A stretch of 64,000 nt of DNA, from contig JACKER010000007.1 in the NCBI GenBank assembly GCA_020632925.1, positions 52,910 through 116,909 of the forward strand, read 5' to 3'. The stretch comes from Alphaproteobacteria bacterium (GTDB taxonomy: Bacteria; Myxococcota_A; UBA796; GCA-2862545). Positions 11,847 to 46,155 of this stretch are shown piece by piece. Numbering within the stretch: the stretch's first letter is position 1; every line of letters begins with the position of its first letter. The position numbers and the translations under genes were made by a program. Under the pieces are notes generated by a model. That model did not search any database. It had not been told where the DNA came from and saw nothing but the letters and a program-made list of their open reading frames with translations.

Positions 11847-11855
11847 GGAGCCCGT

Positions 11856-12821
11856 ATGCTCCTGTTCTCCCTCATCGGTTGTGGTGCGGGTGCGTCGCCC
11901 GCGGTGATGCCTCGCGCGGAGGCGCCCCGGGACTTCTGGTCCCACTGGGGTGACGGCAAGGCCGAGCTCGACGGATACGCGTACACCGCCCGACGCTACG
12001 GCGAGCTGCGGACCGGCGAGGAGATCCAGGTCTGGGTGACGGAGGACTTCACCGCCGGCCAGCTGGTGAAGTCGAACGGCGGGCACGGCGACGAGTTCCC
12101 CGTGCTCAAGCTCAACGACATCCGGCGCTTCCAGACCGGCATCTACGACTACCACCTGCTGCAGAGCGTGTTCGTCCGGGCGGACGGCAAGCAGGCGCTC
12201 GGGCTGCCGGTCAAGGAGGTGCTGTCGGTGGACGAGTGGTGCGGGGCGGCGTTCGAGGAGCTCGTCGTCCGTGACGGTGTGGTCCACGGCGTCGGCCACA
12301 GCTACTTCGACGGCGAGGGGGACCGCTCCTGGGAGGACGAGCGGGTGCCCGCGATGGGCGTGATGGCGGACGCCCTGCCCTACCTCGCGCGCGGCCTGCT
12401 GGGCGATCCGGTCGCGCCGGGCGCGTCGGTGGCCGTGCAGCTCCGGCACTCGCAGATCGATCAGCGCCTGGCACACCGCGAGCCCGCCTGGGTCCCGGCG
12501 ACGCTGTCCCGGGCCGCCGAGGTGGAGTCCGTCGAGGTGCCCGCGGGCACCTTCGAGGTCCGGCGCTTCGAGGTGACCACGGACGACCCGGCGTGCGGCA
12601 CGGCCAGCGGCATCGCAGCGGACGGCACGACCTGCAAGGCGACCTGGTGGGTGGAGGAGGCGGCGCCCCACCGGATCGTGCGTTGGTCGCGCGACAACGG
12701 GGAGGACGCCGTGCTCACGGGCTCGTTCCGCGGCGCCTACTGGTCGATGCACGGTGAGGGGCAGGAGGAGGCGCGGCGCCAGCTCGGCCTCGGCCTCCAC
12801 CCCTACGCGCCGGCTCCCTGA
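11856..12821 (+). CDS. Lipoprotein, hypothetical.
   Basis: Signal peptide plus lipobox LFSLIGCGAG. GC3 is high. No known domain. Lies 10 nt downstream of the preceding gene. Confidence 0.6.
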   Translation: MLLFSLIGCGAGASPAVMPRAEAPRDFWSHWGDGKAELDGYAYTARRYGELRTGEEIQVWVTEDFTAGQLVKSNGGHGDEFPVLKLNDIRRFQTGIYDYHLLQSVFVRADGKQALGLPVKEVLSVDEWCGAAFEELVVRDGVVHGVGHSYFDGEGDRSWEDERVPAMGVMADALPYLARGLLGDPVAPGASVAVQLRHSQIDQRLAHREPAWVPATLSRAAEVESVEVPAGTFEVRRFEVTTDDPACGTASGIAADGTTCKATWWVEEAAPHRIVRWSRDNGEDAVLTGSFRGAYWSMHGEGQEEARRQLGLGLHPYAPAP

Positions 12822-15800
12822 GCCTGGCGAACGGCGGCCAGCCGCGCGCGGATGGGGTGACCGGGGGGTAGCCCGGCACCACGGACCAGCTCCTCGGCGT
12901 GATCGAGCGCCCGACGCGCCTCCGGGCCCCCGCTCGCCAGCGCCACCACGCGCCACCCTTCCGCCGCTCGGACCAGGCACCCGGCGTCCTCCGCGCGGGC
13001 CGCGATCTCGCCCGCCAACGCGCGCGCCTGCTCGACCGCGCCCGACCCCGCGAAGAGCTCGGCCGCCTGCAGGCCGGCGTCGTCCCGGCCCATCCCCGGG
13101 ATCCGGGCCAGGCTCCTCCACGCGGACCCCAGGTCGGCGACATCGACCGCGACGCCGGCCCGGGAGCGCACCCAGGCCGCGAGGATGCGTGCCGAACACT
13201 CGCGGACGGGGTCGCCTTCGGACGCGAGCGCCACAACCTCCGTCCACTGGATCGCCGCGGCCGGATCGCCGTGTTCGACGAGCAGCTCCGCCATCAGGTG
13301 CGCCGAGGTACGGCGGTCCTCGTCGTCTCGCCGCTCGTCGTGGACCCCGCGCGTGAGCCTCATGGCCTCCGTCGTCGCCCCGCGCGCGCGGGCGATCCGC
13401 GCCTGGACCAGGCGTGCCTGGTGGAGGACGGCCACCCCGTTCGGCGCCAGGCGCAAGGCCTCTCCCGCGACGTGCTCGGCCTGCTCGAAGCGTGCGAGCT
13501 CCACCAGCGCGATGCCGAGGTTCGTCAGCGTCAGCGCGCGGGACTCGTCCAGCCCGAAATCCGCCTTCCACTGGGCCGCCTGCTCGAGCGGGGCGATCGC
13601 CTCCCGGGGACGGCCGAGGTCGACGAGCGTGATGGCCTCGTTCATCCAGAGCGCCGTGACGTGGATGGTGGGCTCGTTCCCGAACAGCCGCCGGGCCCGC
13701 GCGAACCCTTCGAGCGCCCGTTCGCTCTCGTGGAGGTACAGGTCGATCAGCGCGATGTTGGAGATGTCGGAAGCCACGCCGTAGTGGTCTCCCATCCGCC
13801 GGTTCGCGGCGGCGCTCTCCTCGAACCGCTCTCGGGCGAGGGCGTGCGCCCCCGTGAGCCACGCGACGGTCCCCGCGAGGGTCGCGACGCGTCCTGCCAG
13901 GAGCGGGTCGTCGATCCCGCGCGCCATCTCGACCGCTCGGAGGGCTTCCTTCTCCGCTTCCTCGCCGTGCCCCTGCTGAGCCAGCGTCACCGCCCGCTGC
14001 CCGGCCAGGCGGCAGACCCTGGAGCGGTCGCCGAGCCGCTCGCCCAGCGGGATGGCCTCGTCCAGCAACGTCCGGCGCCGCGCCCGTTCGCGCGCCAGCC
14101 CACACGCGATCACCGCGCCCTCGAGGGCGAGGAGGCGCTGCTCGTCCGTCAGCTCTCCGGCGAGCACCCGGTCCCAGAGCTCGACCAGGACGCGCGCAGG
14201 TCCGCGGCGGGTCAGGACGGCGGCGGCGGCGGTGGCACAGCTCACCGCGATCTCGCTCCGGCCCTGATCGACGGCCGCGCGGGTGGCGGCCATCAGGTTC
14301 GCGACCTCGAGGTGGTACCGGTCGTGGTGGCGGGGAGCGTCGATCGTCCGCAACAGCCGGAGCCGATCGGGGCTCCCCAGGGCGGCGAAGACCTCGCCGT
14401 GACGCCGGACGGCCGCGTCGAGCGCTCCGGGCGTGGCCTGGCGTCGGACCCACTCCTGGACCACGACGGACATCCGGAAGCGCTGGTGGGTCGGGTCGAG
14501 GCGGAGGACCGAGGCGTCCACCAGCGTCGCGAGGACGTCGATCGCCCAGGGCGCCTCCTCGTGATCGGCGAGGTCCAGCACCTGCTCGGCCATCTCGAGG
14601 GCCGCCCCACCCTCGAACACGGAGAGCTGCACCATCGCCGCGCGGCCCCAGGCGGGCAGCAGTCCCCAGGACACCGCGAGGGAGGCCGCGAGGCTCCGCT
14701 GGCGCTCGGGACGGTCGCGCTCACCGCCCGCCAGCAGGTCCAGGCGGTCGCGCAGGCGCTCGAGCAGGACGGGAGGCGGCAGCAGGCGGGTTCGCGCGGC
14801 GGCGAGCTCCAGGGCCAGGGGCATCCGCTCGAGCGCGTCCACCAGCGCACCGAGAACGCCGTCGTCCACGGGGACGCCGTGGGCCCGCGCCGCGAACAGC
14901 GCGAGGGCGTCCGCGTGGTCCAGCGGCTCCACCTCGAGCTGCTGCTCGCCACGCAGGCGCAGGGAGACCCGCGTGGTGCACAGGAAGGTGGCGGAGGGTG
15001 CGGTCGCGAGCCAGCGCCCGAGCGTCTCGGGGAGCGCGTGGACCACCTGCTCGAGGTTGTCGAGCACGACGAGGACGGCGCCCCGCGCCCGGAGCGCCTG
15101 ACCCACCTGCTCGGTCGGATCGGTGCCCACCATCGGGATCGAGAGCGCGGCCGCGGTGCGCGCGGTGACCGCGTCGGCATCGCGGGCGTCCGACAGGTCC
15201 ACGAACCAGCGCTCCGCGAAGCGTCCCGCGAGCTGTGCCGCGCGCAGCGCCAGTCGCGTCTTCCCGCTCCCTCCGGGCCCCTTGAGCACCACGAGCCGCT
15301 GGTCGCGCAACAGCGCCGCCAGCGCGTCGAGCTCCCGCACCCGACCGACGAAGGAGCTCCGATCGGGCTCGAGGTTGCCGCCGAACGGGTCGAGCGTCCG
15401 GTCGAGCGAGCCGACGGAGGGCGCGCTCGGCGTGATCGGGCCGTCGAACGTGTCGGAGGAGGAGCCCTCCAGCAGGTCGAGCAGGCTCCGGCTCTCCGCG
15501 TGGCGCGGGCGCAGCTCGGCCAGGGCCTGACGCAGGGCGGCGGCGGAGGACCAGCGCTCCGACGGCGCCTGGCGGAGGCAGCGGGCGACCAGCTCGCCGA
15601 GCCCCGGCACCGCCTGCTCGACGGGATCCAACAGCCCCTCCGCCACGTGACGGTCGGCCTCCAGCACCCGGAAGAGCGCGGGCGCCCCGGTCCCGAACGG
15701 CGGGACACCGGTCGCGAGGTGGGCGAGGGTGGCACCGAGCGCGAACAGGTCGGCCTTGGCGTTCTCCCGGCCGTCGACCTGCTCCTCGGGCATGTACCCG

Positions 15801-16441
15801 GCCGTGCCCGCGGGCGCGTCACGCGTGGCCTGGAGACGCGCCACGCCGAGGTCCGCGATCTTGACCAGCCCGCTGCGGTCCAGGAGCAGGTTGCTGGGCT
15901 TGATGTCGCGGTGGACCATCCCTCCGGCGTCGCCCGCCCGCTGGCCGTGGAGGTGGGCGAGCCCGGCGCAGACCTGCAGCCCGACCTCGACGATCGCCAG
16001 GGGGGGCAGGGGACCGCGCTCTCGTAGCAGGCGAGCGAGCGAGACCCCGTCGCAGAGCTCCATGGCCACGTACCAGCGGCCGTCCACCTCCCCGAGGTCG
16101 TGGATCCCCACGATGTTCGGGTGCTGGAGCATCCCGCCGAGGCGGGCCTCGCGGATCAGGCTGCCGCGGTCGAGCTCGGGATCGCCGCGCAGGACCTTGA
16201 GGGCGACGGGCTTGCGGAACCCCTCGGGCCCCACGAGCCAGGCCTGCCACACCTCGCCGGTGCCGCCCACGCCGAGCCGTCGGAGGATCTCGTAGCGGCC
16301 GAAACGGTCGTTGGGCTGGAGCGGCGCCTGCGGCACGCGCCATCCTACCGCTGGTGGGGCGGGCGTGCGCCGGTCGTGGTACACCGGCGGGATGCGTGCG
16401 TTCCTCGCTCGATCCGCCGGCCTGACCGCGGTCGTCACCAC
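12803..16441 (-). CDS. Ser/Thr protein kinase fused to a STAND-type P-loop NTPase and TPR repeats.
   Basis: Kinase subdomains: G-loop LGVGGTGEVWQA, VALKVL, HRDIKPSNLL, DLGVA and GTAGYMPEE. P-loop LVVLKGPGGSGKTRLA is at about nt 15270. The remainder is long, helical and TPR-like. The start may be GTG at 16441 or GTG at 16336. Confidence 0.9.
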   Translation of the reverse strand: MVTTAVRPADRARNARIPPVYHDRRTPAPPAVGWRVPQAPLQPNDRFGRYEILRRLGVGGTGEVWQAWLVGPEGFRKPVALKVLRGDPELDRGSLIREARLGGMLQHPNIVGIHDLGEVDGRWYVAMELCDGVSLARLLRERGPLPPLAIVEVGLQVCAGLAHLHGQRAGDAGGMVHRDIKPSNLLLDRSGLVKIADLGVARLQATRDAPAGTAGYMPEEQVDGRENAKADLFALGATLAHLATGVPPFGTGAPALFRVLEADRHVAEGLLDPVEQAVPGLGELVARCLRQAPSERWSSAAALRQALAELRPRHAESRSLLDLLEGSSSDTFDGPITPSAPSVGSLDRTLDPFGGNLEPDRSSFVGRVRELDALAALLRDQRLVVLKGPGGSGKTRLALRAAQLAGRFAERWFVDLSDARDADAVTARTAAALSIPMVGTDPTEQVGQALRARGAVLVVLDNLEQVVHALPETLGRWLATAPSATFLCTTRVSLRLRGEQQLEVEPLDHADALALFAARAHGVPVDDGVLGALVDALERMPLALELAAARTRLLPPPVLLERLRDRLDLLAGGERDRPERQRSLAASLAVSWGLLPAWGRAAMVQLSVFEGGAALEMAEQVLDLADHEEAPWAIDVLATLVDASVLRLDPTHQRFRMSVVVQEWVRRQATPGALDAAVRRHGEVFAALGSPDRLRLLRTIDAPRHHDRYHLEVANLMAATRAAVDQGRSEIAVSCATAAAAVLTRRGPARVLVELWDRVLAGELTDEQRLLALEGAVIACGLARERARRRTLLDEAIPLGERLGDRSRVCRLAGQRAVTLAQQGHGEEAEKEALRAVEMARGIDDPLLAGRVATLAGTVAWLTGAHALARERFEESAAANRRMGDHYGVASDISNIALIDLYLHESERALEGFARARRLFGNEPTIHVTALWMNEAITLVDLGRPREAIAPLEQAAQWKADFGLDESRALTLTNLGIALVELARFEQAEHVAGEALRLAPNGVAVLHQARLVQARIARARGATTEAMRLTRGVHDERRDDEDRRTSAHLMAELLVEHGDPAAAIQWTEVVALASEGDPVRECSARILAAWVRSRAGVAVDVADLGSAWRSLARIPGMGRDDAGLQAAELFAGSGAVEQARALAGEIAARAEDAGCLVRAAEGWRVVALASGGPEARRALDHAEELVRGAGLPPGHPIRARLAAVRQAQGAGA

Positions 16442-29632: not shown

Positions 29633-29740
29633 TCGGCGGCCGCCGAGGGGTGGCGCGAGGTGTCCCTCCATCTGGCGCGCGCGGTCGGTCGGCCGGGTGG
29701 GGTCGCCGGGTACGACACGAGCGTCCCCCTGGAGGTCTCC

Positions 29741-32059
29741 ATGCGCTCGGTCGTCCTCGTCGCTCTCGCCACCCCCCTGACCGCGTGGGCGGTCCCCTCC
29801 TACAGCGGAGACGCGCCAGGGACGCGCATCACCACCTCGGACCCGAACTACGACATCGCCACCGAGAGCCTGGTGGTCGGTGGCACCGTGCACGGGGTGT
29901 CGGCCGGTGCCCTGAGCACGAACTTCCGCGTGTTCTTCAACGGGATCGACGGCAGCATCTCCGGAACCCCGACCCAGGCGGTCGTGTCGGCCACCATCCC
30001 GATCGGCCCGGAGTTCGGCGGCAACCCCGGCCCGTGGCCGTCCTGGCTGCCGTTCGGGGACATGATGACCGAAGAGACCCTGGTGCCCAAGCCGCTGTTC
30101 TTCGAGGTCATGTCCAAGGCGACCAGGCAGGTGGTGTTCCGCGACCGGACCACCCTGTACGACCTGCGCCAGGACGGGCTGGTGCAGAACGCGTTCGCGG
30201 TCGTCGACGTGGAGGACGGGATGGTCGCGCAGCTCACCCCGATGGGCCTGGACGCGCTGATTCCGGTCCACGAGGCCGATCTCCCGTTCCCGGACGCGGC
30301 AGCGCTCGACACCGAGCTCCACGCGCGGCTGACCACCCTACCGGTCCTGGTCAGCGTCCCGACCGACGTGTGCCGCAACCTGGAGACGCTGGCCGCGAGC
30401 GAGCCCGGCTGGCTGCTCCTGCCCGAGTACGTGGAGGCCCAGGCCTCGGCCGCAGCGGCCTACCTGCTGTTCGCCGACGGCACGGTCACCTCCTGCGTCC
30501 AGACCCCGCCGCTGCCGTTCGACTTCGAGGTGTGCGTGAACCTCATCGAGGCCGAGGCCCTCGACCTGAACGTCGCCGGACAGAGCGTGGCCGCGCTCGA
30601 GTTCGGGGTCCCCACGCGCACGCTACAGTCCACGGTGGACCTCGACGGGCCGTCGGCCGTCTTCGAGCTCCGCTTGCGCGACCTCGAGGTCCGCTACCGG
30701 CACGGAGCGCCGGGGTGCCTCCCCACCATCGACCCGGTCCACCTGGACAACGGCATCGACGTCGGCCAGAACACCATCGACTCGACCGCATGGCTGGACG
30801 ACTGGGCGCGCTGCCCCGGCTCGATGGCCGACGCCGTCGCCGTGGCCTCGGGACCCCTCCTCCACGATCTGTCGGTGGGCCTCGACCCGGAGACGATCGA
30901 CGTGAGCGCCGGCGACCACGCGGCGTTCGATCTGCCGTCGCCGAGCTGGACCGCGTCCGGCACCTGCGTGGAGTCCTGGCTCAACCCGTCCGCGGCGGCC
31001 CTCCTCCCCGGGTTCGAGGTCCCGCTCGAAGCCGCGCTGGGGAGCGCGGTCGACGACGCCTGGCCCCGCACCGCCGAGGCCAGCGCCCTCGACGCGCTGC
31101 TGCAGCCCTGGGAGATCGGCACGCGCCCCCTCCCCGGCGCGGTGCTGACCGCCGACCTGACCGAGCTCGCCACCGACCCGCTGCCGGGGATGGTGACGCG
31201 CTGGCGTACCTCGTCCGAGCCCACGGACCCGCTCAGAGCCAGCCGCATGCTGGCGCCCTGGCTGTTCAAGGCTCCGCGGGCCTACGGGTTCGACGTCTCC
31301 GACGACGCGCTCGATCCCGACGGTCACCCGTTCGACAGCTCGTTCTCGGTCTCCACCACCCACCTCAACGCCCAGCTGCGCACCCGCAACGCGACGCATG
31401 GCGCGTGGCTCGATCTGCGTCCGAGCTACGCCGACCTGGGCCTTCCCTCCTCCGGCGGGAACCCCTCGAACGCCCCCGCGCCGCTCACGGGCGCCAACCT
31501 CGGCCAGTGGTTCTCCCCGTTCTCCAGCTACGGCGCGACGACCTTCACGATCACCGTGACCCCGACCCTCCCGCCGCAGGTGTTCATGGACCCGGACACG
31601 AGCTTCCCCGCCGGCGAGACCCCGCTCGCCTTCGCCTACCCGGCGCTGCGCGTGGACTTCGCCACGGTGGGGATCCCGTCGAGCGTGGTGGCGACGGTGT
31701 GGATCGACCTGTGGGACACCGACCTGGTGCTCGACCTGGACGGCTCCGGGGTCGTCCGCGCCGCGGTGGACACCCCGAGCTGGAGCTCGGTGGCGACGAT
31801 GACGCCCCAGGGGTGCCCGATGGCGCCGCTGCTGGACGTGCCGGCCTTCCAGAACTCGTGCGACGACGACTTCGCGGCCCACGTGCTGGCGCTCGTGCAG
31901 CCCTCCATCCTGGCCTCGACCGCGGCGGTGCTCGACGAGATCGCCGCGCTGGACGGCGTGGACACCCCGACCGGGGGCACCACCAGCCGGCGGCTCGACC
32001 CCATGCTGCAGTACCAGCACGGGATGTACGTCCGCTGGTTCGGGCAGCTGGTCCCCTGA
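29741..32059 (+). CDS. Large secreted hypothetical protein.
   Basis: Signal peptide MRSVVLVALATPLTAWAVPS. RBS GGAGG lies upstream. GC3 is strong over 2.3 kb. No known domain. Confidence 0.6.
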   Translation: MRSVVLVALATPLTAWAVPSYSGDAPGTRITTSDPNYDIATESLVVGGTVHGVSAGALSTNFRVFFNGIDGSISGTPTQAVVSATIPIGPEFGGNPGPWPSWLPFGDMMTEETLVPKPLFFEVMSKATRQVVFRDRTTLYDLRQDGLVQNAFAVVDVEDGMVAQLTPMGLDALIPVHEADLPFPDAAALDTELHARLTTLPVLVSVPTDVCRNLETLAASEPGWLLLPEYVEAQASAAAAYLLFADGTVTSCVQTPPLPFDFEVCVNLIEAEALDLNVAGQSVAALEFGVPTRTLQSTVDLDGPSAVFELRLRDLEVRYRHGAPGCLPTIDPVHLDNGIDVGQNTIDSTAWLDDWARCPGSMADAVAVASGPLLHDLSVGLDPETIDVSAGDHAAFDLPSPSWTASGTCVESWLNPSAAALLPGFEVPLEAALGSAVDDAWPRTAEASALDALLQPWEIGTRPLPGAVLTADLTELATDPLPGMVTRWRTSSEPTDPLRASRMLAPWLFKAPRAYGFDVSDDALDPDGHPFDSSFSVSTTHLNAQLRTRNATHGAWLDLRPSYADLGLPSSGGNPSNAPAPLTGANLGQWFSPFSSYGATTFTITVTPTLPPQVFMDPDTSFPAGETPLAFAYPALRVDFATVGIPSSVVATVWIDLWDTDLVLDLDGSGVVRAAVDTPSWSSVATMTPQGCPMAPLLDVPAFQNSCDDDFAAHVLALVQPSILASTAAVLDEIAALDGVDTPTGGTTSRRLDPMLQYQHGMYVRWFGQLVP

Positions 32060-32076: not shown

Positions 32077-33102
32077 TCAGCCGCTGGGCTTTCTCGGGGG
32101 CTGGGCACGCCAGGCGTCGGGCGTCGTCCCGGTCCAGCGCTTGAACGCCCGGTGCAGCACCGAGGGCTCGGCATATCCGAGGCGCCAGGAGATCTCGGCG
32201 ATGTCGGCGCCCGCCGTCAGCAGCTGCTCGGCGGCGACCCGGCGCACGGTGTCCAGCTCGTCGGCGAAGCTCGTGCCCTCGGCCTTCAGGCCGCGCTGCA
32301 GCGTGCGTGGGCTGGTTCGCAGCGTGCTGGCGACGGTGACCAGGCTGGCCCCGCCGAGGAGGTGGTCGGCGAGCGCCTCCTCCAGCACCCCGCGGACCCG
32401 CTGGCCGACGCCGTCGCCCTCGCGCAGCGCCTCCAGGTCCCGGGTGGCCTGGGCCTCGAAGTGCTCGGCGAACATCGGGTTGCCCGTGACCACCGGGCTC
32501 GCCATCGTCTCGCGGCTCATGGCCAGGTACGTCTGCCCGGCGCCGAAGCGGACCGGGCAGTCGAACCACGCCTCGTACTCGGACAGATCTCCCTCGCGGG
32601 GATGCTCGAACACCGCCTCCACCAGCGGCACGCGGCGGCCCAGGGCCCGGTTCGCCGCCAGCAGACCCGACGCCAGGTTCTCCTCGCGCAGGTGCACCGA
32701 GGCGCGGCGCTCGGGCCGGCGGAGCTCGTAGCGGTACCGCGGGGGTTCGGCGGCGCGGTCGAGCGCGCAGCGGTAGGCGCTGGTCCACAGCCGCGAGAAC
32801 CGGGCGAGCCGGTCGATGGCCTGCCCGAAGTCGCGGCTGGCGAAGAACAGCAGGCCCGGCAGGGCGATGGTCTCGAGATCGTGGAGGCGGGCGACGTACA
32901 GGCCCAGGCGGTCGTCCCCCAGCAGATCCTCCGCGGCCTCGAGCAGGGCCTCGACGTGTGCCCACGGCTGGCGCACGCGCAGCAGTGACGTGGACGCGGG
33001 GACGCCCGCCAGCTCGAGCAGCTGGGCGCGGGGGGCTCCGAGCTCGACCAGGTTGTCGATCAGCCCGCGCACCAGGACGGAGGCGACCATCGGTTCGGAC
33101 AT
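32077..33102 (-). CDS. AraC-family transcriptional regulator.
   Basis: C-terminal AraC helix-turn-helix: ADIAEISWRLGYAEPSVLHRAFKRWTGTTP. Confidence 0.85.
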   Translation of the reverse strand: MSEPMVASVLVRGLIDNLVELGAPRAQLLELAGVPASTSLLRVRQPWAHVEALLEAAEDLLGDDRLGLYVARLHDLETIALPGLLFFASRDFGQAIDRLARFSRLWTSAYRCALDRAAEPPRYRYELRRPERRASVHLREENLASGLLAANRALGRRVPLVEAVFEHPREGDLSEYEAWFDCPVRFGAGQTYLAMSRETMASPVVTGNPMFAEHFEAQATRDLEALREGDGVGQRVRGVLEEALADHLLGGASLVTVASTLRTSPRTLQRGLKAEGTSFADELDTVRRVAAEQLLTAGADIAEISWRLGYAEPSVLHRAFKRWTGTTPDAWRAQPPRKPSG

Positions 33103-33164: not shown

Positions 33165-33458
33165 CTACCGGGAGCAGCCTGCCCAGACGCAAGTGGGTGG
33201 GCTCGTCCGTCCGACGCACGAGTAGCACCCGAAGCCACAGAAACCGGTTGTGTCGCAGGGAATCAGGCACGTGCCCGAGGTGGTCGTCGCCACCCCGGAG
33301 TCGTCGAGCTCGTGGGCGCAGACCAGGCCCTCTCTGCAATTGTGGTCGAACAAGCACGGTTGGCCAGCCCCTTCCACGGTCTTCGTCCCTGGATGGTCGG
33401 CGCAGCCGAGCGCCGCGAGCGTCCAGAACGTTGGCGAGGGGAGCCGGAGCCGGTCCAT
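33165..33458 (-). CDS. Small Cys-rich lipoprotein, paralog 1.
   Basis: MDRLRL...TLAALGC lipobox, followed by GxGQPC and about 10 Cys. ATG overlaps the upstream stop (TGATG). Confidence 0.55.
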   Translation of the reverse strand: MDRLRLPSPTFWTLAALGCADHPGTKTVEGAGQPCLFDHNCREGLVCAHELDDSGVATTTSGTCLIPCDTTGFCGFGCYSCVGRTSPPTCVWAGCSR

Positions 33459-33745
33459 CACCTGGAACAGCCAGCGGGGACGCACACAGGTGTAATCGTG
33501 GTCGTCCGGCAAAACGCGCACCCTCTGCACTGGTCCGCTTCGTTGCAGGGGATCTGGCAGGTGTTCGAAAGGATGGACTCATACTCGGGAGCTTCGTCCA
33601 GGGCACAGACCGTCCCCTCTGCACACTCATCGTTGGACGCACAGGGCTGGCCGACGCCAGGCACGGTCGGGGTCGCTGGATCGTCGCTGCAGCCGGATGC
33701 CAACGCCAGGCACATCGACAGCAGCCGCTCTGGTCTCACTGCCAT
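33458..33745 (-). CDS. Small Cys-rich lipoprotein, paralog 2.
   Basis: MAVRPERLLSMCLALASGC lipobox, VPGVGQPC and about 10 Cys. Cys spacing matches the downstream paralog (C..IPC....C.GC..C......P.CV.AGCSR). Confidence 0.55.
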   Translation of the reverse strand: MAVRPERLLSMCLALASGCSDDPATPTVPGVGQPCASNDECAEGTVCALDEAPEYESILSNTCQIPCNEADQCRGCAFCRTTTITPVCVPAGCSR

Positions 33746-33757
33746 GAGGTGCTCCAG

Positions 33758-34444
33758 TCAGACGACCTGCGCCGATCCCAGCCAGTCCGCGTAGTTCGTG
33801 CGCGCCGCCGCGTTCGCCGCCACCGCCGTCAGTGCGGGGTTGCGGAGCACGGCGACCGGCTCGAGCACCTGCTGATCGAGGAGCAGCGGGACCCGGTGGT
33901 GGGTGGCCTCGAGGCGGGGGGCGGCGTCCCCGAGGGCCGCGCGGAGGAACTCGTCCACCAGCTCGGTGCAGTACAGCTCGTCGTTGTCCGGCTGGAAGCC
34001 GTAGTCGTAGGGCCGGCCGATGAGCGAGATCACGCGCTCGAGGCCGACGGAGAGCCGGTCGTCGGGCAGGTCGGGGTGCCGCACGACCACCCAGGTGTCC
34101 CGCTCGTAGCGGTCGAGGAAGCGGGCGAGGGGCTCGCGGATCACGCCGACGTCGCGGTCCAGGGCGCCGAACGTCCGCTTGACCGCGTCCCACATGGCGC
34201 CGAACCAGCCGCGCATGGTCTTCTCGGTGGCCATCGCGTGCACCAGCGCGCCCTCGCCCACGTGGACGCCGACGTGCGTGAGCCGGCCGTTGTTCCCGAG
34301 GAGCACGAAGTCGCCGGCCCGCAGCACGCGGAGCATGTCGTCGGTCGACGCCGCCGTGAGGCGCGGCAGCCCGTCGACGTCGTCCTTGTGGCCGCCCACC
34401 GTCCACGCGATCTTGAGCAGCACGCGCAGCAGCCAGGTCCTCAC
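33758..34444 (-). CDS. YiiX/YaeF-like permuted papain-fold (NlpC/P60 superfamily) protein.
   Basis: GDFVLLGNNGRLTHVGVHVGEGALVHA...ELYCTELVDEF. ATGA overlap with the patatin gene stop. Confidence 0.55.
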   Translation of the reverse strand: MRTWLLRVLLKIAWTVGGHKDDVDGLPRLTAASTDDMLRVLRAGDFVLLGNNGRLTHVGVHVGEGALVHAMATEKTMRGWFGAMWDAVKRTFGALDRDVGVIREPLARFLDRYERDTWVVVRHPDLPDDRLSVGLERVISLIGRPYDYGFQPDNDELYCTELVDEFLRAALGDAAPRLEATHHRVPLLLDQQVLEPVAVLRNPALTAVAANAAARTNYADWLGSAQVV

Positions 34445-35946
34445 GTCTCCTCCCGTCGGCCGGCGAAGAAGGCCCGCGTCGAGCGACGGCCGGTCTCCAG
34501 CAGGAACTCCCGGTCCCGCGCGTCGAGCTCGAAGTCGGTGGTGCTCACGTAGTCGGTGTCGATGGGCACGGTCCGCGTCCGGTCGTCCGGGACCAGCGAG
34601 ACCCGCCGCAGGTGCATGAGCAGCGTGTTGAACACGGTCGACACGAACGTCGACATCGAGCGCGGCTCGCTCCGCGCCAGCCCGAGGTGGGCGGTCAGGT
34701 CCACGTGGCGGCTGTCGATCGTGCGCACGATCTCGTCGTAGCTCACCTTTCCGTCGCCGTTGTGATCCATCGCCGAGAAGATCGCGTCGATGTCCTGGGT
34801 CTCGAAGAGGAGCTGAGCGTCCTGGTACGTGAGCCGCCCACCCGCGAACAGCCCCTGGACCTCCTTCCGATCGACGCGACCGTCCCCGTCCTCCTCGAGC
34901 TCGGCGAGCGCGTCGACCAGCCGCTGGGCCGCGCCGTCCAGCGCCTCGCGGAGGCGGGTGTGGGCCTCGAGGCGCTTCTCGGACTGCGCCCGGCTGCGCG
35001 AGAGCTCGGTGTCAGGTCGCTCGGGGGGCCGCATGTCGGCCGTCATCCACCACTCGCTCGCGTCGCCCAGCTCGGCCTTGTCGAACACGGTGAACCCGAG
35101 GGTGGCCGGGTTCCGGGGGCTGAAGCGCACGGCGTCGTGCGTGAGCTCCGTCACGCGGTCCAGCGGCCGCAGCTTGCGCAGGAACGTGTCCTGCCGGTCC
35201 ATGGACAGCCACCAGCCGTCGAAGGCGTGGACCGGGAAGTTGCAGAGCAGCCCGCCGTCCGTGTACAGGTCGGCCTGCCCGCCGGTCTGCTCCCCGCCGC
35301 GGACCACGCGGTAGGGCACCATCAGCACGGGCAGCGACATGGACATGCCGACCGCCAGCCGCACGGGCATGTCGGGCGTGGTCTTGGGGTGGCAGTACTC
35401 GGTGCACATGCGCGTGAGGTTGGTCACGGGCACGCACAGCTCGCGGCCGCACCGCTCGAGCACCTGGGCGAAGGTCACGTCCTCGCTGCCCGTCCGCTCC
35501 TTCAGCCGCTCCCCGAGGAACTCCAGCAGCCGCGAGCCGGGGTTCAGGCCGTAGATGGTGACCATGTTCCACAGACCGCTCACCATGCCGAAGCGGGCGT
35601 CGCGCATGACGGCCTCGAGGTCCGTCTCGGCGAGCATCTGCGTGAGCTCCTGCGAGGACATGCCGATGGCGAGCATGGCGGCGAGGAAGGAGCCCGAGGA
35701 GGCGCCCGCGACCCGCAGGACGTGCTTCGGGTAGATGCCCTCCTGCTCGAGGACCTCGATGGCGCCCATGTAGGCGATGCCCTTCGCCCCTCCGCCCTCG
35801 AACACGATGTTGGTGTACGGCCAGCGGGGGTGCGGCTCGCGCGTGGGCTTGACCGGCGGGCGCTGCAGCGCGCTCAGCGGCGGGAGCGTGGGCGGCCCGA
35901 TGCGCGACAGGTCGATGTTCCAGGGCTGCAGGACGACGCCGGCCAC
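34441..35946 (-). CDS. Patatin-like phospholipase with two C-terminal EF-hand calcium-binding loops.
   Basis: FEGGGAKGIAYMG (oxyanion loop), GASSGS (GxSxG) and DGG. EF-hand loops: DEDGDGRVDRKE and DHNGDGKVSYDE. GTG start at 35946 overlaps the upstream TAG (TAGTG). Confidence 0.8.
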   Translation of the reverse strand: MAGVVLQPWNIDLSRIGPPTLPPLSALQRPPVKPTREPHPRWPYTNIVFEGGGAKGIAYMGAIEVLEQEGIYPKHVLRVAGASSGSFLAAMLAIGMSSQELTQMLAETDLEAVMRDARFGMVSGLWNMVTIYGLNPGSRLLEFLGERLKERTGSEDVTFAQVLERCGRELCVPVTNLTRMCTEYCHPKTTPDMPVRLAVGMSMSLPVLMVPYRVVRGGEQTGGQADLYTDGGLLCNFPVHAFDGWWLSMDRQDTFLRKLRPLDRVTELTHDAVRFSPRNPATLGFTVFDKAELGDASEWWMTADMRPPERPDTELSRSRAQSEKRLEAHTRLREALDGAAQRLVDALAELEEDGDGRVDRKEVQGLFAGGRLTYQDAQLLFETQDIDAIFSAMDHNGDGKVSYDEIVRTIDSRHVDLTAHLGLARSEPRSMSTFVSTVFNTLLMHLRRVSLVPDDRTRTVPIDTDYVSTTDFELDARDREFLLETGRRSTRAFFAGRREET

Positions 35947-36425
35947 TACTCCTCCAGGCGGAGCTCGTACGTGATCACGGTACCCCCGAGCGGACGGGGC
36001 TCGACCGCGACGACGCCAGCGACCGGCCGGTCGGGCCCGGAGAGGGCGCGGATCGCGGCGCGCACGTCGTCCTCGGTGAAGGTCCCGCGCAGCGGCGCGC
36101 GGTGCAGGCAGCGTCGCCCGCCGTCGGCGCACATCGTCGCCACCAGCTCCGGGTCGGCGTCGTCCTCGAGTGCCAGCGCCACGCGCACGGCGGCGTCGAA
36201 CTGCCGGCGTTGGAGCTCCGGGTCCACCGGTTCTTCCGCGGGCTCGGGCTCGGGTGCCGGAGCGGGCGAGGGGAGCGCGGGCGGCGGGAGCGCACGCACC
36301 GCGGGTGGCGCTGGCACCGAGCGCTCGGGTGCTCGGGGCTGCCGCGTCCCCCACAGGAGCGCCAGCGCGCCGAGGAGCACCCCGACCAGCAGGGCCAGGG
36401 GCCACCAGCGGCGCGCTGGAGACAT
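35946..36425 (-). CDS. Membrane-anchored hypothetical protein with a Pro-rich linker.
   Basis: N-terminal TM helix WWPLALLVGVLLGALALLW and a PAPAPEPEP linker. GC3 is high. Confidence 0.5.
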   Translation of the reverse strand: MSPARRWWPLALLVGVLLGALALLWGTRQPRAPERSVPAPPAVRALPPPALPSPAPAPEPEPAEEPVDPELQRRQFDAAVRVALALEDDADPELVATMCADGGRRCLHRAPLRGTFTEDDVRAAIRALSGPDRPVAGVVAVEPRPLGGTVITYELRLEE

Positions 36426-36432
36426 CGCGACC

Positions 36433-36822
36433 TCAGATGCTCGTGATGGTGCAGGCCTCCCACTCGAAGGTCTTGCCCGGGTTGTTGGACTGCAGGATGG
36501 GGAGGGCCCAGGCGACGAACTGCGCGGCGTTGGTGATCGTGGGCGCGCCCGACGGGTAGGTCATCGTCCGGTTCACGCTGCCGGGCGAGGAGGGACCGAG
36601 GCGGTACCCGGTGACCATGCCCCACCACTCCTTGGAGCCGTCGCGGTAGCCGACCATCTGCACCTGGCTGCTGCCGTAGTTGGAGACCCAGATCGGTCCA
36701 TCGAAGATCTGCATGGGCTGACCGCTGTGCTCGGTCTCCACCTTCTTGCGGGGTGGTGCCTTCTTCTCTTCCTTCTTCCCGTGCTTCTTGGTCCCCTTGC
36801 CATCGCCTTTCTCAGCCGCCAT
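36433..36822 (-). CDS. Small hypothetical protein with a Lys-rich N-terminus.
   Basis: MAAEKGDGKGTKKHGKKEEKKAPPRKK...; GC3 is very high throughout. Lies 22 nt downstream of the kinase gene. Confidence 0.5.
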   Translation of the reverse strand: MAAEKGDGKGTKKHGKKEEKKAPPRKKVETEHSGQPMQIFDGPIWVSNYGSSQVQMVGYRDGSKEWWGMVTGYRLGPSSPGSVNRTMTYPSGAPTITNAAQFVAWALPILQSNNPGKTFEWEACTITSI

Positions 36823-36844
36823 CGGGCCACCTCCCGTGAGCAGA

Positions 36845-39064
36845 TTACTCGCGGGCCTCGGCCGTCAGGGGGAGTGGGAGGTCGCACTCGCCGCGAACTT
36901 CGCTTGGAGCGAGGATCTCCCGAGGCACATTCGCTCCGGTGGTCCACCAGGCCCGCTCTCGAGCTGCGGCGCGACAACGCTGTCGGAAGGGCTCGGGCGC
37001 GCCGGGCGCCTGTCCCAGGAGGGCGAGGATCTGTGCGCCCACGCCCGGTGGATCCAGGGCCTCTGCTTCTCGGCGTGTTCCTTCCAACTGGTCGGGCGGC
37101 CCTCCGTCCAACGACAGCAGCAACGCCGTCCCCAGCAAGGCCAGGGCGTGGCCTCGCCCTCGTCGCCCACTGGCCACGACGACCGACGCGAGCGCGCGGC
37201 AATCGTCCAGGGCGCCCGATCGCCACGCCAGACCGGCTTCGGCCAGCGCCGCATACGCGGTGGCGGCAGGGAGCTCGAGCGCCTCGAGATCCGCGACCAG
37301 GTCGAGATCCGGAGCAGCGCCGGACATCGATCGGTAGGCGCCATGTCGAAGCAGTCCGAGGGCGGACACCTCGTGCAGCAGTCTGCCGGCGCCAACGGCG
37401 TCCTGGAGTGCCCGCTGCGCCAGCTCGGAAGCGCCCTCGGGATCGGGTATCTCCAGCAGCGCTGCCCCGGCCCACATCAATGCCGCCGCTCGGCTACCCG
37501 CGTCTTTCAGATCCTCGGCCGCCATGAGCAGTTGCTGCGCGGCCGCCCGGAAGTCCAGCCGTCGATAGGACAGGGTCCCCCGCGCCATCAGGGCCTGTGG
37601 CCGGAGACCCGAATCGCTCTCGGCGAGGCGCTCGAGGTCGGTGACGACGCTCTCCAGCGCACTCTCGGCCCCGCGGCGGAAGGCCGACAGACGGACCATG
37701 GCGGCTCGATGTCCGCCGGTCGCGCCGAGCAAGGCCTCCACCCGGTCACGTTCCCCGCGCGCCGCGAGCATCCCGGCCTCTGCGATCTGCTCCAGCTCTG
37801 CGAGTGCCGGATCGTCGAGCTGACGGAGCACGACCAGCAGGGACTCGAACGCAGCGGCGGTGCCCAGCTGGAACGTTGCATCTGCCCAGATGTCGAGCAG
37901 TCGACGAACCGACTCCGCTCGATGGCGGAGCGGGAAGAGCGCCAGCTTGATCAGGGGAATGCTGGTGGCACCACCTTGCCTCTCCACCTCCGCCAGGACG
38001 GCCTCCTCCAGCGCCTCCTCGGACTGCGCGAGGGCGGCCTGGACGAGCGGTGACACCCGGTCGGCGCCACGCAGCGCCCGCAGGCGGTAGGCGTCGACCA
38101 CACCGTGCTGGTCGATCACCCCCGCGCGCTCCCAGCGACCGAGCTCCTCCAGCAGCAGCTCGGGGTCGCCGCCGGTCGCGTCCATCAGCGTCTCGGCGGC
38201 GAGCGTGCGGCTCCGCGACACCCGCTCCGGCCCGCGGAGCCAGGCGCGCAGTACGTCCACGTCGTACGGCCCCGGGGGAGGGCGGACCTTCGCCGTGGCG
38301 CCGAGCGCGCGGGCGGCGGCGCGCGCGTCCGGGAAGCGGTCGGCGGGGAGGCGCGCCACCAGCCGGTCGACGACCTCCGTGAACCGCGACGGGGGAACGC
38401 CGCGCTCCGCCAACGGCACCGGGTCCGACCCGAGCCGCGCGCCCACCAGGTCCGCGCCGTCGTGCGGGAGCTGGCCCGAGACCGCCTCGTACAGGACGAC
38501 GCCGAGCGAGTACAGGTCGCTGCGCGGGTCCACCGCGTCGTCCAGGAGCTGCTCGGGCGCGATGTACCGCAGGGTGCCCTGGTTCGCCTGATCCTGGCTC
38601 TCCGACCAGGCGACCCCTTCGCCGCTGGCGAGCCCGAGGTCGAGCACCGTGGGTCGCCCGTCGTCGCCCACGAGCACGTTGCTCGGCTTCAGGTCGCGGT
38701 GGACGATGCCGAGGGTGTGCAGCCGGTCGAGCACGTCGAGGACCTGCTGGGCGAGGATCGTGAGCCGCGCCGGGTCCGTGGTGTCGCCGGGGAAGCAGAC
38801 GCCCTCGACGTACTCCATCACCAGCAGCGCGGCACCGCCCCACTCGCCCTGGTCGAGCAGCTCCACCATGCCCGGGAAGCGCGCCGCCATCAGCGCGGTC
38901 GTCTCGTACCGGACCTCGCCCCGCTTGACCTGCTTGACCGCGACCCGGCGCCCCGTGATCGCGTCCGTGCCGTCCCACACGACGCCCTGACCGCCCTTCC
39001 CCGCGACCTCGCGCAGCACGTAGCGGCCGAGGACGCGGGCTCCGCTGTGCCAGCCGTCGCTCAT
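36845..39064 (-). CDS. Ser/Thr protein kinase with a helical, TPR-like C-terminal region.
   Basis: Kinase motifs: VAGKGGQGVVWDG, VAVKQV, HRDLKPSNVL, DLGLA and GTLRYIAPEQ. ATG at 39064. The listed ORF carries a spurious 136-aa N-terminal extension. Confidence 0.85.
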   Translation of the reverse strand: MSDGWHSGARVLGRYVLREVAGKGGQGVVWDGTDAITGRRVAVKQVKRGEVRYETTALMAARFPGMVELLDQGEWGGAALLVMEYVEGVCFPGDTTDPARLTILAQQVLDVLDRLHTLGIVHRDLKPSNVLVGDDGRPTVLDLGLASGEGVAWSESQDQANQGTLRYIAPEQLLDDAVDPRSDLYSLGVVLYEAVSGQLPHDGADLVGARLGSDPVPLAERGVPPSRFTEVVDRLVARLPADRFPDARAAARALGATAKVRPPPGPYDVDVLRAWLRGPERVSRSRTLAAETLMDATGGDPELLLEELGRWERAGVIDQHGVVDAYRLRALRGADRVSPLVQAALAQSEEALEEAVLAEVERQGGATSIPLIKLALFPLRHRAESVRRLLDIWADATFQLGTAAAFESLLVVLRQLDDPALAELEQIAEAGMLAARGERDRVEALLGATGGHRAAMVRLSAFRRGAESALESVVTDLERLAESDSGLRPQALMARGTLSYRRLDFRAAAQQLLMAAEDLKDAGSRAAALMWAGAALLEIPDPEGASELAQRALQDAVGAGRLLHEVSALGLLRHGAYRSMSGAAPDLDLVADLEALELPAATAYAALAEAGLAWRSGALDDCRALASVVVASGRRGRGHALALLGTALLLSLDGGPPDQLEGTRREAEALDPPGVGAQILALLGQAPGAPEPFRQRCRAAARERAWWTTGANVPREILAPSEVRGECDLPLPLTAEARE

Positions 39065-39643
39065 CGCGGGCACGATGACACGGGCAGCGCTCGGCTCCAA
39101 GGACGGCGCACGACCCGTGGAGGCGGTCCCGGTACGTCGCCGTCCGACCCGAGACGATCCCGGATGCCCCCCGTTCCGGTCCCCACCTCCGTCCCGCACG
39201 CCCCTTGAGCCCGGGGCGTGGGCTCGACAGCGGGCGCGGCGCCCCCCGGGCAACGCGTGACCTGGTCGATCGAGCGTCGGCGACGATCGCGCCGAGCCCG
39301 GCTCCGGTGTTGCCGTGCCGCTGATGGTGCCGCTCCGCAGTCCTCGCCTCCAGGGAAGAGAGCATTGGCCCCGCAGTTGCAGGCGGCGTCGGGTAGGGTT
39401 CTGGTGAGCGGGCGAGATCGCCGCTTCGGCCGTGAGGTGCTTCGTGAACATCGTGCGGGTGCTGCCCGACATCCAGAATTCTACTTGGCGTCCTCCGCTC
39501 CGGGCGGACAGCCGTTCGCGTTACGCCCTTGCTTCCTGCTCCTTGACCGATGCGCGCTGGGGGGCGGCCCGCGAACGCTGTCCCTCAGCTGCGGCCGACT
39601 CAGCGCCCGGTTCACCGATGAACGGCGTACCGGTCCCGTTCTG

Positions 39644-40405
39644 ATGTGGTGCTGGCTGCTCGCCGCGTCCGCGATGGCCGAGCCGTATGACGTGCTCTGG
39701 TGGGGGAGCTCGAAGGACGGGTGTTTCACAGAGCGTCGCCTCGCGGGCGCCATCCCCCACCGGCCCTCCCGGACGGGCTGGACCATCGAGGAAGCCGCCG
39801 CCAGCGTCAGCGGTACCTGGTCAGGGCGGCTGCTGTTCGATGGTGACAGCATGAATCCCAGCACGTGGTCGAGCGAGCAGACGGCTACGTTGGTCGCGGA
39901 GTTCGATCCGGAGGCGGAGGGTCAGGACGTACGGAACCAGCGTCTGCCACGCCTCATCGGCGACGACGATTGCGACTGTGGGTCCTGGCTGGAGGTTCGG
40001 GGAGCCTGGCGCTTCGAGGTCGAGGACGAGCTGGGACGTCGGATCACGGCGACCTTCCCGGCAGCCGAGCTCCATGCGCACGGACCGGACATTCGGTTCT
40101 TGCGGCTCGTCGACGACCCCATCTTGGTTCCGAACTTCGCCAGTGACGGTTGGTCTCTGGTAGAGCTCCTCGATCTGGCGGAGGAGCAGCTCACCTTGGA
40201 GGTCGGTGAGGTCCGAGGACGCCGTGGGCGGAGCTACCGGACCTGCTCCTTCGCCACGCCCGGGGAGTCGCCCTGGCGCCCTCCCGTCCTCTCCTTCTGC
40301 CGTACCGGTGGGTGCGACGTTTGGGTGCCGGACGGCGTACCGATGCCGACTCCCCCGTTGCAGCGGACGCTGCTGCTCGAGCGGATGGAAGCACGTGCCC
40401 CGTAG
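39644..40405 (+). CDS. Secreted hypothetical protein.
   Basis: Signal peptide MWCWLLAASAMA. GC3 is moderately biased and the local GC is lower than the surroundings. Confidence 0.45.
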   Translation: MWCWLLAASAMAEPYDVLWWGSSKDGCFTERRLAGAIPHRPSRTGWTIEEAAASVSGTWSGRLLFDGDSMNPSTWSSEQTATLVAEFDPEAEGQDVRNQRLPRLIGDDDCDCGSWLEVRGAWRFEVEDELGRRITATFPAAELHAHGPDIRFLRLVDDPILVPNFASDGWSLVELLDLAEEQLTLEVGEVRGRRGRSYRTCSFATPGESPWRPPVLSFCRTGGCDVWVPDGVPMPTPPLQRTLLLERMEARAP

Positions 40406-40719: not shown

Positions 40720-41015
40720 TCCTGCCGAACGGGGATCGATGGGTGCGGCGGGCGGGGGCCCTCGTCCTCGGCATGTTCCTGGGTGCCTCGAGCAGCGACT
40801 GCGTTCCGTGTCAGACACGGTTCGACGCAGTGCCCACGGGGGCGTTCGAGCTCTCGGACAGCTTCCTCGAGGAGCGTGGGTGGGAGCGGGGAACGATCAT
40901 CGTGACCGACGACGAGGTGCGTGTCGAGGTTCGGACCCTTGCCGGCGGCACCGCGACGTTGACGGGTCGCCGACCACCGCGGGAGGACGCGGTTCATGAT
41001 GGCTCGGCGCCATGA
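40716..41015 (+). CDS. Small hypothetical protein, N-terminal TM or signal segment.
   Basis: MILPNGDRWVRRAGALVLGMFLGASSSDC. GC3 improves sharply from this ATG onward. ATGA overlaps on both sides. Confidence 0.4.
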   Translation: MILPNGDRWVRRAGALVLGMFLGASSSDCVPCQTRFDAVPTGAFELSDSFLEERGWERGTIIVTDDEVRVEVRTLAGGTATLTGRRPPREDAVHDGSAP

Positions 41016-41905
41016 GAGCCACCTTGCTGGCGTCGGTGTGGGTTCTGCCATTGCTCTCCTGTGGCGAGCGGACCGTGGACTACGATCCGTGGATCGAGGT
41101 CGAGAGCTACGGACAGGACTACTCCGAGCTGAAGCAGGTCGTCTGGGTGCTCCCTGCACAATCCGCGATGGATGCTGGGGTCGACACGGACGTTCTGCTC
41201 GCCTCGTTCGAGTCCTTCGCACAGGTGTTCCAGTCGGAGCTCGTCGGCCAGGCCCGGTTCGCGCTGATTCGCCCGAACGGCCACTCGCTGCGCTTTGTCG
41301 GCGACCCTGCCTGGGTGGACGTCGTCGACGGATGGAGCAGCACGATCTCGGACCGTCTCGCGGACGCCGCGATGGCGTCGGGTGGCGGACGGTCGAATGA
41401 GCAGCTGTCGGCGGCCGGACACGCGTTCCTTCCTTCCAATGGCGCGGAGTGGCCCGCGAGCAACGCGGCCGTGGTGGTCGCGTCGCGGGCAGCGGAGCGT
41501 TTCCGCAGCACCGATGACTTCGTGGATGCTATCGGTGGCGTGCGGGGTACGGTGTCGGTCCTCCATCAGGAGGCGTGTGGTGGAGTGGGAGGGGCGGCGT
41601 ACGAGCAGGCCCTCGAGTTCAGTGGTGGCATCGCGGTGGATGGTTGTTCCGACGCCGATGGCCTGACCGAGCTCGGTATGCTCGCGGCTGGGCGAAAGTC
41701 GACGTTCTTCACCCTCGAGAAGATCGCGGGGGAGCTGGCCGTGGAGGTGGATGGCGTGCCCCTCGACGCCGGGTGGTCGGAGGGACCGTGCCGGGTGGTG
41801 TTCGACTTCGATCACGTTCCGGCGTCGGGCAGCTCGGTGACCATCAAGTACCACGCGCCCAACCACGACAAGTGGTGTACCAACATGTTCTCGCGACCAC
41901 CGTAG
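41012..41905 (+). CDS. Lipoprotein, hypothetical.
   Basis: Lipobox VLPLLSCG. ATGA coupling to the upstream gene. 297 aa. Confidence 0.55.
   Translation: MRATLLASVWVLPLLSCGERTVDYDPWIEVESYGQDYSELKQVVWVLPAQSAMDAGVDTDVLLASFESFAQVFQSELVGQARFALIRPNGHSLRFVGDPAWVDVVDGWSSTISDRLADAAMASGGGRSNEQLSAAGHAFLPSNGAEWPASNAAVVVASRAAERFRSTDDFVDAIGGVRGTVSVLHQEACGGVGGAAYEQALEFSGGIAVDGCSDADGLTELGMLAAGRKSTFFTLEKIAGELAVEVDGVPLDAGWSEGPCRVVFDFDHVPASGSSVTIKYHAPNHDKWCTNMFSRPP

Positions 41906-42582: not shown

Positions 42583-46155
<3,573 letters not shown>

Follow-up and report, generated by a model that had tools for sequence, protein, structure and literature searches.

Patatin-like phospholipases of the VipD, ExoU and CBASS (cyclic oligonucleotide-based antiphage signalling system) types are secretion or defence effectors whose activator is a host protein (Rab5, ubiquitin) or a cyclic nucleotide. 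On the eukaryotic side, calmodulin controls the patatin-family enzyme iPLA2beta (PNPLA9), and a C2 domain makes cPLA2 responsive to Ca2+. The YiiX/YaeF enzymes, which have a permuted NlpC/P60 core, are common, yet for none of them do we know an established substrate. In YiiX a hydrophobic S1 pocket accommodates a fatty acid, and a case has been made that permuted NlpC/P60 enzymes use lipids or lipidated proteins as substrates (PMC3142127); for one bacterial representative, Tox-Act1, phospholipase activity has been demonstrated (PMC12994826). Here we analyse a window of 64,000 nt (the whole stretch of DNA, from contig JACKER010000007.1) with a GC content of ~0.70-0.75 across the region and a gene cluster on the minus strand (39064-33165), in which a gene for an EF-hand patatin-like phospholipase is directly followed by one for a YiiX/YaeF-type enzyme. 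The patatin and YiiX-like genes are truly linked and are the only conserved part of the cluster. We read the locus as a composite cluster, with a core pair predicted to act on lipid acyl chains and with pieces that are co-oriented and packed in the window genome (probability about 0.6), and we hold the specific chemistry within this picture at much less than that figure. A first-pass annotation of this DNA had proposed a single seven-gene system. This is not a new system, and the cluster itself is ordinary genome packing; what we rate as new is an undescribed, conserved combination of known folds, an EF-hand patatin with a YiiX-like enzyme.

The EF-hand patatin and its YiiX-like partner

The patatin gene, the first of the core pair (34441..35946, minus strand, GTG start, 501 aa), scores 98.6 bits against Pfam Patatin (PF01734, cut-off 27.7), 35.8 against EF-hand_7 (cut-off 30) and 31.6 against EF-hand_1 (cut-off 25.4). 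Its product carries the motifs GGGAKG at residues 51-56 (oxyanion loop), GASSG at 81-85 (nucleophile) and DGG at 230-232 (catalytic Asp), and is a predicted phospholipase with an intact Ser-Asp dyad and oxyanion loop. The EF-hand pair lies at approximately residues 340-410; its two loops, EEDGDGRVDRKE and DHNGDGKVSYDE, fit the 12-residue EF pattern (acidic ligands at positions 1, 3, 5 and 12, Gly at 6) and putatively bind Ca2+. Residues of both parts (G51-G53, K55, S83, D230-G232, D355/G356/E362 and E405) are invariant in 18 homologues of 40-80% identity.

In an AlphaFold2 model of the patatin protein, of medium confidence (predicted local distance difference test, pLDDT, 76.6; predicted template modelling score, pTM, 0.75), a core strand (282-288) is followed by a long helix with the EF-hand pair (~314-412), and only then come the final strand and helix of the fold (459-500); because of this position the Ca2+ sensor is modelled as an insertion in the patatin fold and not as a tail. 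The top Foldseek matches of the model are VipD, CapV, CapE, plant patatin (Pat17), PlpD, ExoU and iPLA2beta (6aun), with a probability of 1.0 for VipD, CapV, Pat17 and PlpD. By sequence, the PDB matches are VipD, ExoU and PlpD, and residues 336-412 match calmodulin-like lobes. The best PDB matches, namely VipD/ExoU/PlpD and CapV/CapE, thus have the same fold and catalytic apparatus (GGGxKG, GxSxG, DGG), but the window patatin, unlike VipD, ExoU and CapV, carries an EF-hand pair within its fold and lacks both a delivery domain and a neighbouring cyclase gene. Its likeness to iPLA2beta and cPLA2 would lie in the coupling of a phospholipase A to a Ca2+ signal, as we propose here, and for iPLA2beta also in structure (6aun); the EF-hand pair resembles a calmodulin lobe, with the sensor fused into the enzyme whereas it is supplied in trans for iPLA2beta.

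A protein search returned 174 patatin homologues at E <= 1e-10. Among the 120 of them listed, nearly all are ~500 aa long with the same Patatin and EF-hand architecture, and they come from Myxococcota-labelled metagenome-assembled genomes (MAGs), Cystobacter, Archangium, a Bryobacterales-labelled MAG and many Actinomycetota. At 40-47% identity the family is widespread in MAGs labelled Ilumatobacteraceae, Acidimicrobiia, Nanopelagicales and Propionibacteriaceae (loci L011-L046). The second EF loop is partly degenerate in the Actinomycetota proteins, several of which are labelled 'arachidonate 5-lipoxygenase' in JGI records, an apparent mis-annotation. In the literature, which we searched incompletely, we found nothing on a bacterial EF-hand patatin or on a patatin/YiiX coupling, and the family seems to be uncharacterised as well as widespread, freshwater Actinomycetota included.

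The second core gene (33758..34444, minus strand, GTG start, 228 aa) encodes a protein that matches Pfam Peptidase_C92 (PF05708) at 38.7 bits (cut-off 27). H57, H69 and C159 are invariant in 29 homologues, in the permuted order with His before Cys, and the His-x11-His...Cys spacing presumably resembles that of PLAAT3. An AlphaFold2 model (pLDDT 86) has E. coli YiiX (2if6) as its best Foldseek match, followed by PLAAT3, AdPLA, H-REV107 and HRASLS2 with probabilities of 0.82-0.99. The permuted core, His before Cys, is common to this protein and the E. coli YiiX/YaeF family, but the window protein is not an orthologue of E. coli YiiX (24.2 bits against the NCBIfam equivalog PRK10030, below its cut-off of 216) and its subfamily is marked by an N-terminal helix that is conserved and by the invariant insert MATEKTMRG. 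PLAAT/HRASLS/LRAT enzymes and Tox-Act1 are permuted NlpC/P60 enzymes too and act on phospholipid acyl chains via a Cys acyl-intermediate; compared with them, the sequence match to LRAT, obtained with a relative, stays below threshold, and the window protein has no C-terminal membrane anchor and no toxin context. For both core proteins, the start sites are backed by N-terminal conservation in relatives, and reading of the sequences revealed no signal peptide.

The conservation of the pair was assessed over 80 genomic loci, 7 metagenome loci seeded with the YiiX-like protein and a dozen contigs obtained by exact protein look-up, with which all eight window proteins (the seven of the cluster and the AraC-family regulator beyond it) were compared by tblastn; two of these loci, L001 and L002, are the window's own genome. 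In 12 independent lineages, the YiiX-like gene comes directly after the EF-hand patatin gene (the window; L083; L084/L038/P0151 contig; P0005 contig; L003; L005; L094; L095/L096; L092/L087; L088; L007; L093/L090), across which the patatin is between 80% and 54% identical to the window protein. In five of these lineages (window, L083, L092, L093 and L094) the genes overlap, by 4 or 11 nt. In a 13th lineage (L004) a leucine-rich-repeat gene lies between the two; it encodes 407 aa (11578-12801) and its stop overlaps the YiiX start. Approximately 19 further YiiX homologues were inferred, from equal contig sizes, to share a contig with an EF-hand patatin homologue.

The flanks of the pair differ each time; examples are a VIT/VWA gene in divergent orientation, an enoyl-CoA hydratase, an ABC ATPase, EamA with an unknown gene, a GDSL lipase with a phosphatidylinositol-specific phospholipase C (PI-PLC), a GNAT acetyltransferase and a tRNA synthetase. 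The GDSL lipase and PI-PLC genes, which encode further lipid-acting enzymes, flank the pair in the marine lineage L093 (5017-6102 and 9197-10162). On the P0005 contig, the enoyl-CoA hydratase gene (6222-7043) ends 2 nt before the patatin start. We also considered P0109, an 800-aa call in which parts of a patatin and of an acyl-CoA dehydrogenase are fused, as a link to beta-oxidation; both halves are truncated, the call comes from a single 3.7-kb contig and is probably chimeric, and no evidence was drawn from it. The P0005 and P0109 cases hint, weakly, at a connection with fatty-acid degradation. In Actinomycetota, the gene downstream of the EF-hand patatin is a conserved 813-aa open reading frame (ORF) or a conserved ~335-aa ORF resembling a LacI-type regulator. 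A common partner of the patatin in that phylum was sought by clustering the ORFs of 41 loci and was discarded: the clustering was noisy, with shadow ORFs in high-GC DNA, and direct inspection revealed unrelated downstream genes.

Composition of the packed cluster

In the window, the pair is embedded in seven co-oriented ORFs of the minus strand (39064-33165), separated by gaps of at most 22 nt or by stop/start overlaps, and in this respect the first-pass annotation was right. Upstream of the patatin gene lie a Ser/Thr kinase (STK, 36845..39064, 739 aa), a 129-aa protein with a Lys-rich N-terminus (K129, 36433..36822) and a 159-aa protein with an N-terminal hydrophobic segment (TM159, 35946..36425); downstream of the YiiX-like gene lie two predicted Cys-rich lipoproteins, Lpp1 (33458..33745, 95 aa) and Lpp2 (33165..33458, 97 aa), all on the minus strand. 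An AraC-family regulator of 341 aa on the same strand (32077..33102; Arabinose_bd 99.5 bits, HTH_18 63.4 bits) follows outside the conserved unit. The domain calls made from the DNA alone (Ser/Thr kinase, patatin with two EF-hands, permuted papain-fold YiiX-like protein, AraC) all exceed their Pfam cut-offs. The junctions were mostly read correctly, with a gap of 22 nt between STK and K129, an overlap of 1 nt at TM159/patatin (TAGTG, which holds the TM159 stop and the patatin start), 12 nt between the YiiX-like gene and Lpp1, and TGATG at Lpp1/Lpp2. Three details needed correction: the gap from K129 to TM159 is 7 nt and not 5, the patatin/YiiX-like overlap reads GTGA (the YiiX-like start being GTG) and not ATGA, and the gap from Lpp2 to AraC is 62 nt and not 63.

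The ORFs of 739, 129, 159, 501 and 228 aa are public gene calls with the same ends, and identical proteins are encoded on a contig of the metagenome-assembled genome GCA_020632835.1. By coordinate offset, contig JACKEU010000024.1 begins at about position 45645 of the window, which must thus belong to a longer record of the same organism; an identical K129 is also recorded on a 1.13-Mb contig. NCBI labels of identical or near-identical proteins disagree (Myxococcales vs Alphaproteobacteria); we treat the taxonomic label as uncertain, the close relatives being mostly labelled Myxococcota. The first-pass annotation had named internal promoters and terminators as a way to break the operon. We scanned the cluster and found no sigma-70-like promoter or intrinsic terminator inside it, a weak test for such an organism. 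In the 62-nt gap between Lpp2 and AraC, hairpin folding is no better than in shuffled sequences (z = -0.69), and a repeat scan of the cluster gave only chance-level matches. Because the packing is tight and no internal promoter- or terminator-like site was seen, co-transcription is plausible and the cluster genes are probably co-transcribed in the window organism.

Do the seven genes then form one system, a regulated membrane-lytic, predation or defence module in which the kinase controls a Ca2+-dependent lipase, a YiiX hydrolase and secreted lipoproteins? The co-orientation, the short gaps or overlaps and the lack of terminator-like sites speak for it, as does the fact that, according to the public gene calls, only the kinase has ~580 bp of non-coding DNA upstream. 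The comparison with relatives, which was suggested together with the operon, points the other way: the gene order is kept in no other lineage, only patatin followed by YiiX is preserved, and the kinase and K129 stand co-oriented upstream of the pair at no locus outside L001/L002. Generic kinases do lie no more than 5 kb from the pair in L007, L087/L092 and L088, but they match in the catalytic domain only, at ~30% identity, and for this reason are not orthologues of STK. The window itself holds another Ser/Thr kinase domain (15506-16303, minus strand; 29% identity to that of STK), which illustrates how dense kinases are in this genome. With its synteny absent, we consider the seven-gene module improbable.

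Its defence variant fares no better. For the patatin, PADLOC gives only weak generic phospholipase matches, and the NCBIfam CBASS lipase equivalog (NF041079) matches at 22 bits vs 200, with no CD-NTase (cGAS/DncV-like nucleotidyltransferase) cyclase among the eight genes or the called neighbours. The kinase-based defence systems PD-T4-6, MADS (Mad6), BREX (PglW) and Stk2 were considered and set aside: PADLOC matches the catalytic domain only and no partner genes are present, and against the NCBIfam equivalogs the kinase stays far below the cut-offs (Mad6 111.6 vs 460; PglW 43.7 vs 990). The defence reading is unsupported, the kinase and phospholipase matches all being generic and sub-threshold.

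The kinase and K129 are instead a separate conserved pair, with K129 just downstream of the kinase in every case. STK is a Hanks-type Ser/Thr kinase (Pkinase 100.1 bits vs a cut-off of 31.7; Pfam match at residues 17-202) with the motifs GKGGQG, VAVK, HRDLKPSN, DLG and IAPE, followed by a C-terminal region of ~480 aa without Pfam match (residues 261-739). At E up to 5, Pfam gave nothing usable in these C-terminal 479 aa or in K129, TM159, Lpp1 and Lpp2. K129 has no Pfam, NCBIfam or PADLOC family and belongs to a very small one: a word-indexed search found 2 proteins and an exhaustive HMMER search only P0122 (76%), P0189 and P0190, the remaining matches being YDG, NHL and WD40 repeat proteins over ~30 residues, which we judged compositional. 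TM159, also without Pfam family, is a lineage-restricted companion of the core pair; its C-terminal domain, with two invariant Cys, is weakly conserved in ORFs directly upstream of the patatin in L083, L084 and L038 only.

The closest relative with context, L083, is 80% identical to the window in patatin, 75% in YiiX, 50% in the full-length kinase, 42% in K129 and 31% in TM159. There, the kinase and K129 lie on the opposite strand to the patatin, ~4.6 kb away and behind a thioredoxin/AhpC/NHL gene, which also argues against a seven-gene module: one strand carries K129, the kinase, the thioredoxin/AhpC/NHL gene and a 301-aa gene, and the other a 150-aa TM159 homologue, the patatin and YiiX. In L083 (region 287-6089), the large thioredoxin/AhpC/NHL-repeat gene directly precedes the kinase. 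A homologous gene of this type is found in the window at ~42600-45645, ~3.5 kb upstream of the kinase with three opposite-strand genes between. The two arrangements suggest a local inversion or insertion between the L083 and window genomes. Other ORFs flanking the cluster in the window have no Pfam family (29660-32059, plus strand, 799 aa; 39218-40405, plus strand, 395 aa; 41012-41905, plus strand, 297 aa); for the 395-aa ORF the public record uses a later start (253 aa).

The two lipoprotein genes are not called in the public annotation. We regard them as real unannotated genes because they encode paralogues (42-48% identical) whose lipobox Cys and 10 further Cys can all be aligned; they also share a C-terminal AGCSR. 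The lipoboxes predicted from the sequences, LASGC in Lpp1 (LALASGC) and AALGC in Lpp2 (LAALGC), look compatible with the loose pattern of PROSITE PS51257. Lpp1 also has a weak, sub-threshold match to TIGR04201 (Myxo_Cys_RPT, a myxobacterial Cys-rich repeat). The GC content at third codon positions (GC3) is 0.74 in Lpp1 and 0.84 in Lpp2, above their values at first and second positions (GC1 and GC2) and below those of the neighbours, the larger genes having 0.86-0.98. Outside the window's own genome, none of the loci compared has homologues of Lpp1, Lpp2 or AraC beside the patatin/YiiX pair.

Behind the genes of phospholipase toxins there are typically immunity genes for lipoproteins, sometimes in duplicate. 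The patatin and/or the YiiX-like protein might accordingly be exported toxins that target lipids, as Tle and Tox-Act1 do, with the tandem lipoproteins as periplasmic immunity proteins; the GC3 of the lipoprotein genes below that of their neighbours would fit, and permuted NlpC/P60 toxins that cleave phospholipids exist (PMC12994826). However, both enzymes lack a signal peptide and a delivery domain, and a search for a cassette of the Tle/Tli type of the type VI secretion system found no delivery domain or secretion-system gene among the cluster genes and called neighbours. The lipoproteins are missing from every other patatin/YiiX locus examined and, unlike polymorphic toxins, the patatin family is uniformly ~500 aa long, with its Actinomycetota copies beside ordinary genes. 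We find a toxin/immunity cassette very unlikely.

Another possible role for Lpp1 and Lpp2 is that of substrates: the YiiX-like enzyme would work on lipoproteins, by N-acylation or deacylation as in the case of S. aureus LnsA, with the patatin supplying acyl chains. LnsA is said to be an NlpC/P60-superfamily protein and LnsB a CAAX-protease-like membrane protein. A member of the YiiX subfamily without patatin (L097, 6001-7647) adjoins an Rce1-like/CPBP membrane protein, a pairing reminiscent of LnsA/LnsB. S. aureus has a two-component lipoprotein N-acylation system (PMC7387801), and a proposed activity of YiiX is the hydrolysis of amide bonds to fatty-acyl groups, such as those of lipoproteins (PMC3142127). 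But the window enzyme has no export signal, whereas lipoproteins are acylated outside the cytoplasm; the lipoprotein genes do not accompany the YiiX-like gene in relatives, and the Rce1-like neighbour was seen once. We give this alternative almost no credence. In L097, a 321-aa ORF upstream of YiiX was dismissed as likely spurious (Arg/Pro-rich, no family). In L102 (3646-5711), another member of the subfamily without patatin directly follows a MurJ/MatE-family gene, with a 4-nt overlap.

The core pair and its possible function

The composite cluster that we favour would be made of three independently inherited pieces: (i), the bicistron of the EF-hand patatin and the YiiX-like gene, preceded in the closest relatives by the gene for a small anchored protein; (ii), the Ser/Thr kinase with the 129-aa protein, a separate unit; and (iii), Lpp1, Lpp2 and AraC, which would be local additions. 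For the core, a possible sequence of events can be outlined. A rise in cytoplasmic Ca2+ would be sensed by the EF-hands and would gate the patatin, via lid movement or membrane binding; the patatin would then deacylate phospholipid on the inner side of the cytoplasmic membrane. The co-translated YiiX-like enzyme, held on the membrane by its conserved N-terminal helix, might take the fatty-acyl group on its Cys as a thioester, and hydrolyse or transfer it like PLAAT/LRAT enzymes. The output would be membrane lipids whose acyl chains are remodelled or turned over upon a Ca2+ signal. Gene structure, domains, catalytic residues, folds and conservation patterns are what the locus offers directly, and from them we infer the Ca2+ gating, the membrane association, the chemistry of the second enzyme and any physical complex. 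A lipid-remodelling role for the patatin/YiiX pair fits current knowledge of permuted NlpC/P60 enzymes (PMC3142127, PMC12994826).

Several points weigh against this reading. The pairing is not obligatory: the EF-hand patatin has no YiiX neighbour in L006, L008, L009, L010 (Cystobacter fuscus) and all Actinomycetota loci, and conversely the YiiX subfamily occurs without patatin in L097, L102 and three short contigs (L085, L089 and L091). The Cystobacter and Archangium genomes examined carry the patatin alone. Most comparisons come from metagenome contigs with short flanks, and the activity, Ca2+ binding, localisation and complex of the pair are predictions. Finally, the kinase, K129 and TM arrangement may be shared by very close kin, as a young lineage-specific kinase link: in L100, whose K129 is 74% identical to that of the window, an ORF starting with a TM (transmembrane) segment follows the K129 stop directly, after which the contig breaks off.

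This last point bears on a further alternative, in which the ancestral units were independent and the kinase and K129 were recently placed before TM159, patatin and YiiX in one lineage, where they would regulate the core by co-transcription and perhaps by phosphorylation. The tight packing fits such a recruitment, and so do L098-L101, where the kinase is followed by K129 after a 21-nt gap (the kinase C-terminus being 60% identical to that of the window and K129 74%) and then by the ORF with the TM segment. But these contigs end before the patatin could appear. Both units are also neighbours in L083, though divergently arranged, a proximity that shared ancestry explains; no sign of a phospho-acceptor or docking feature emerged, and nothing in the data points to K129 as a substrate of the kinase. 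We therefore consider a functional recruitment unlikely and retain the composite cluster.

Within the composite cluster, it is tempting to speculate that the pair is a Ca2+-gated two-enzyme machine for phospholipid deacylation and transacylation, a prokaryotic counterpart of the eukaryotic Ca2+-controlled phospholipase A2 and PLAAT pathways. It would turn a Ca2+ signal into lyso-lipids, N-acyl lipids or remodelled acyl chains, and the fused patatin would be a widespread bacterial Ca2+ effector. We regard this extended version as possible, though rather unlikely.

For the kinase, the small proteins and the lipoproteins, annotation as a new defence or predation system is unwarranted from one locus. 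The conserved pair matters in other ways. The partnership with a phospholipase is the first genomic hint of a pathway for YiiX-type enzymes. The EF-hand patatin spans Myxococcota to abundant freshwater Actinomycetota, and one clade has it hard-wired to a partner of the YiiX type. Few effectors of Ca2+ signalling are known in bacteria, and this conserved phospholipase, which carries an EF-hand pair of its own, is a testable candidate for one.

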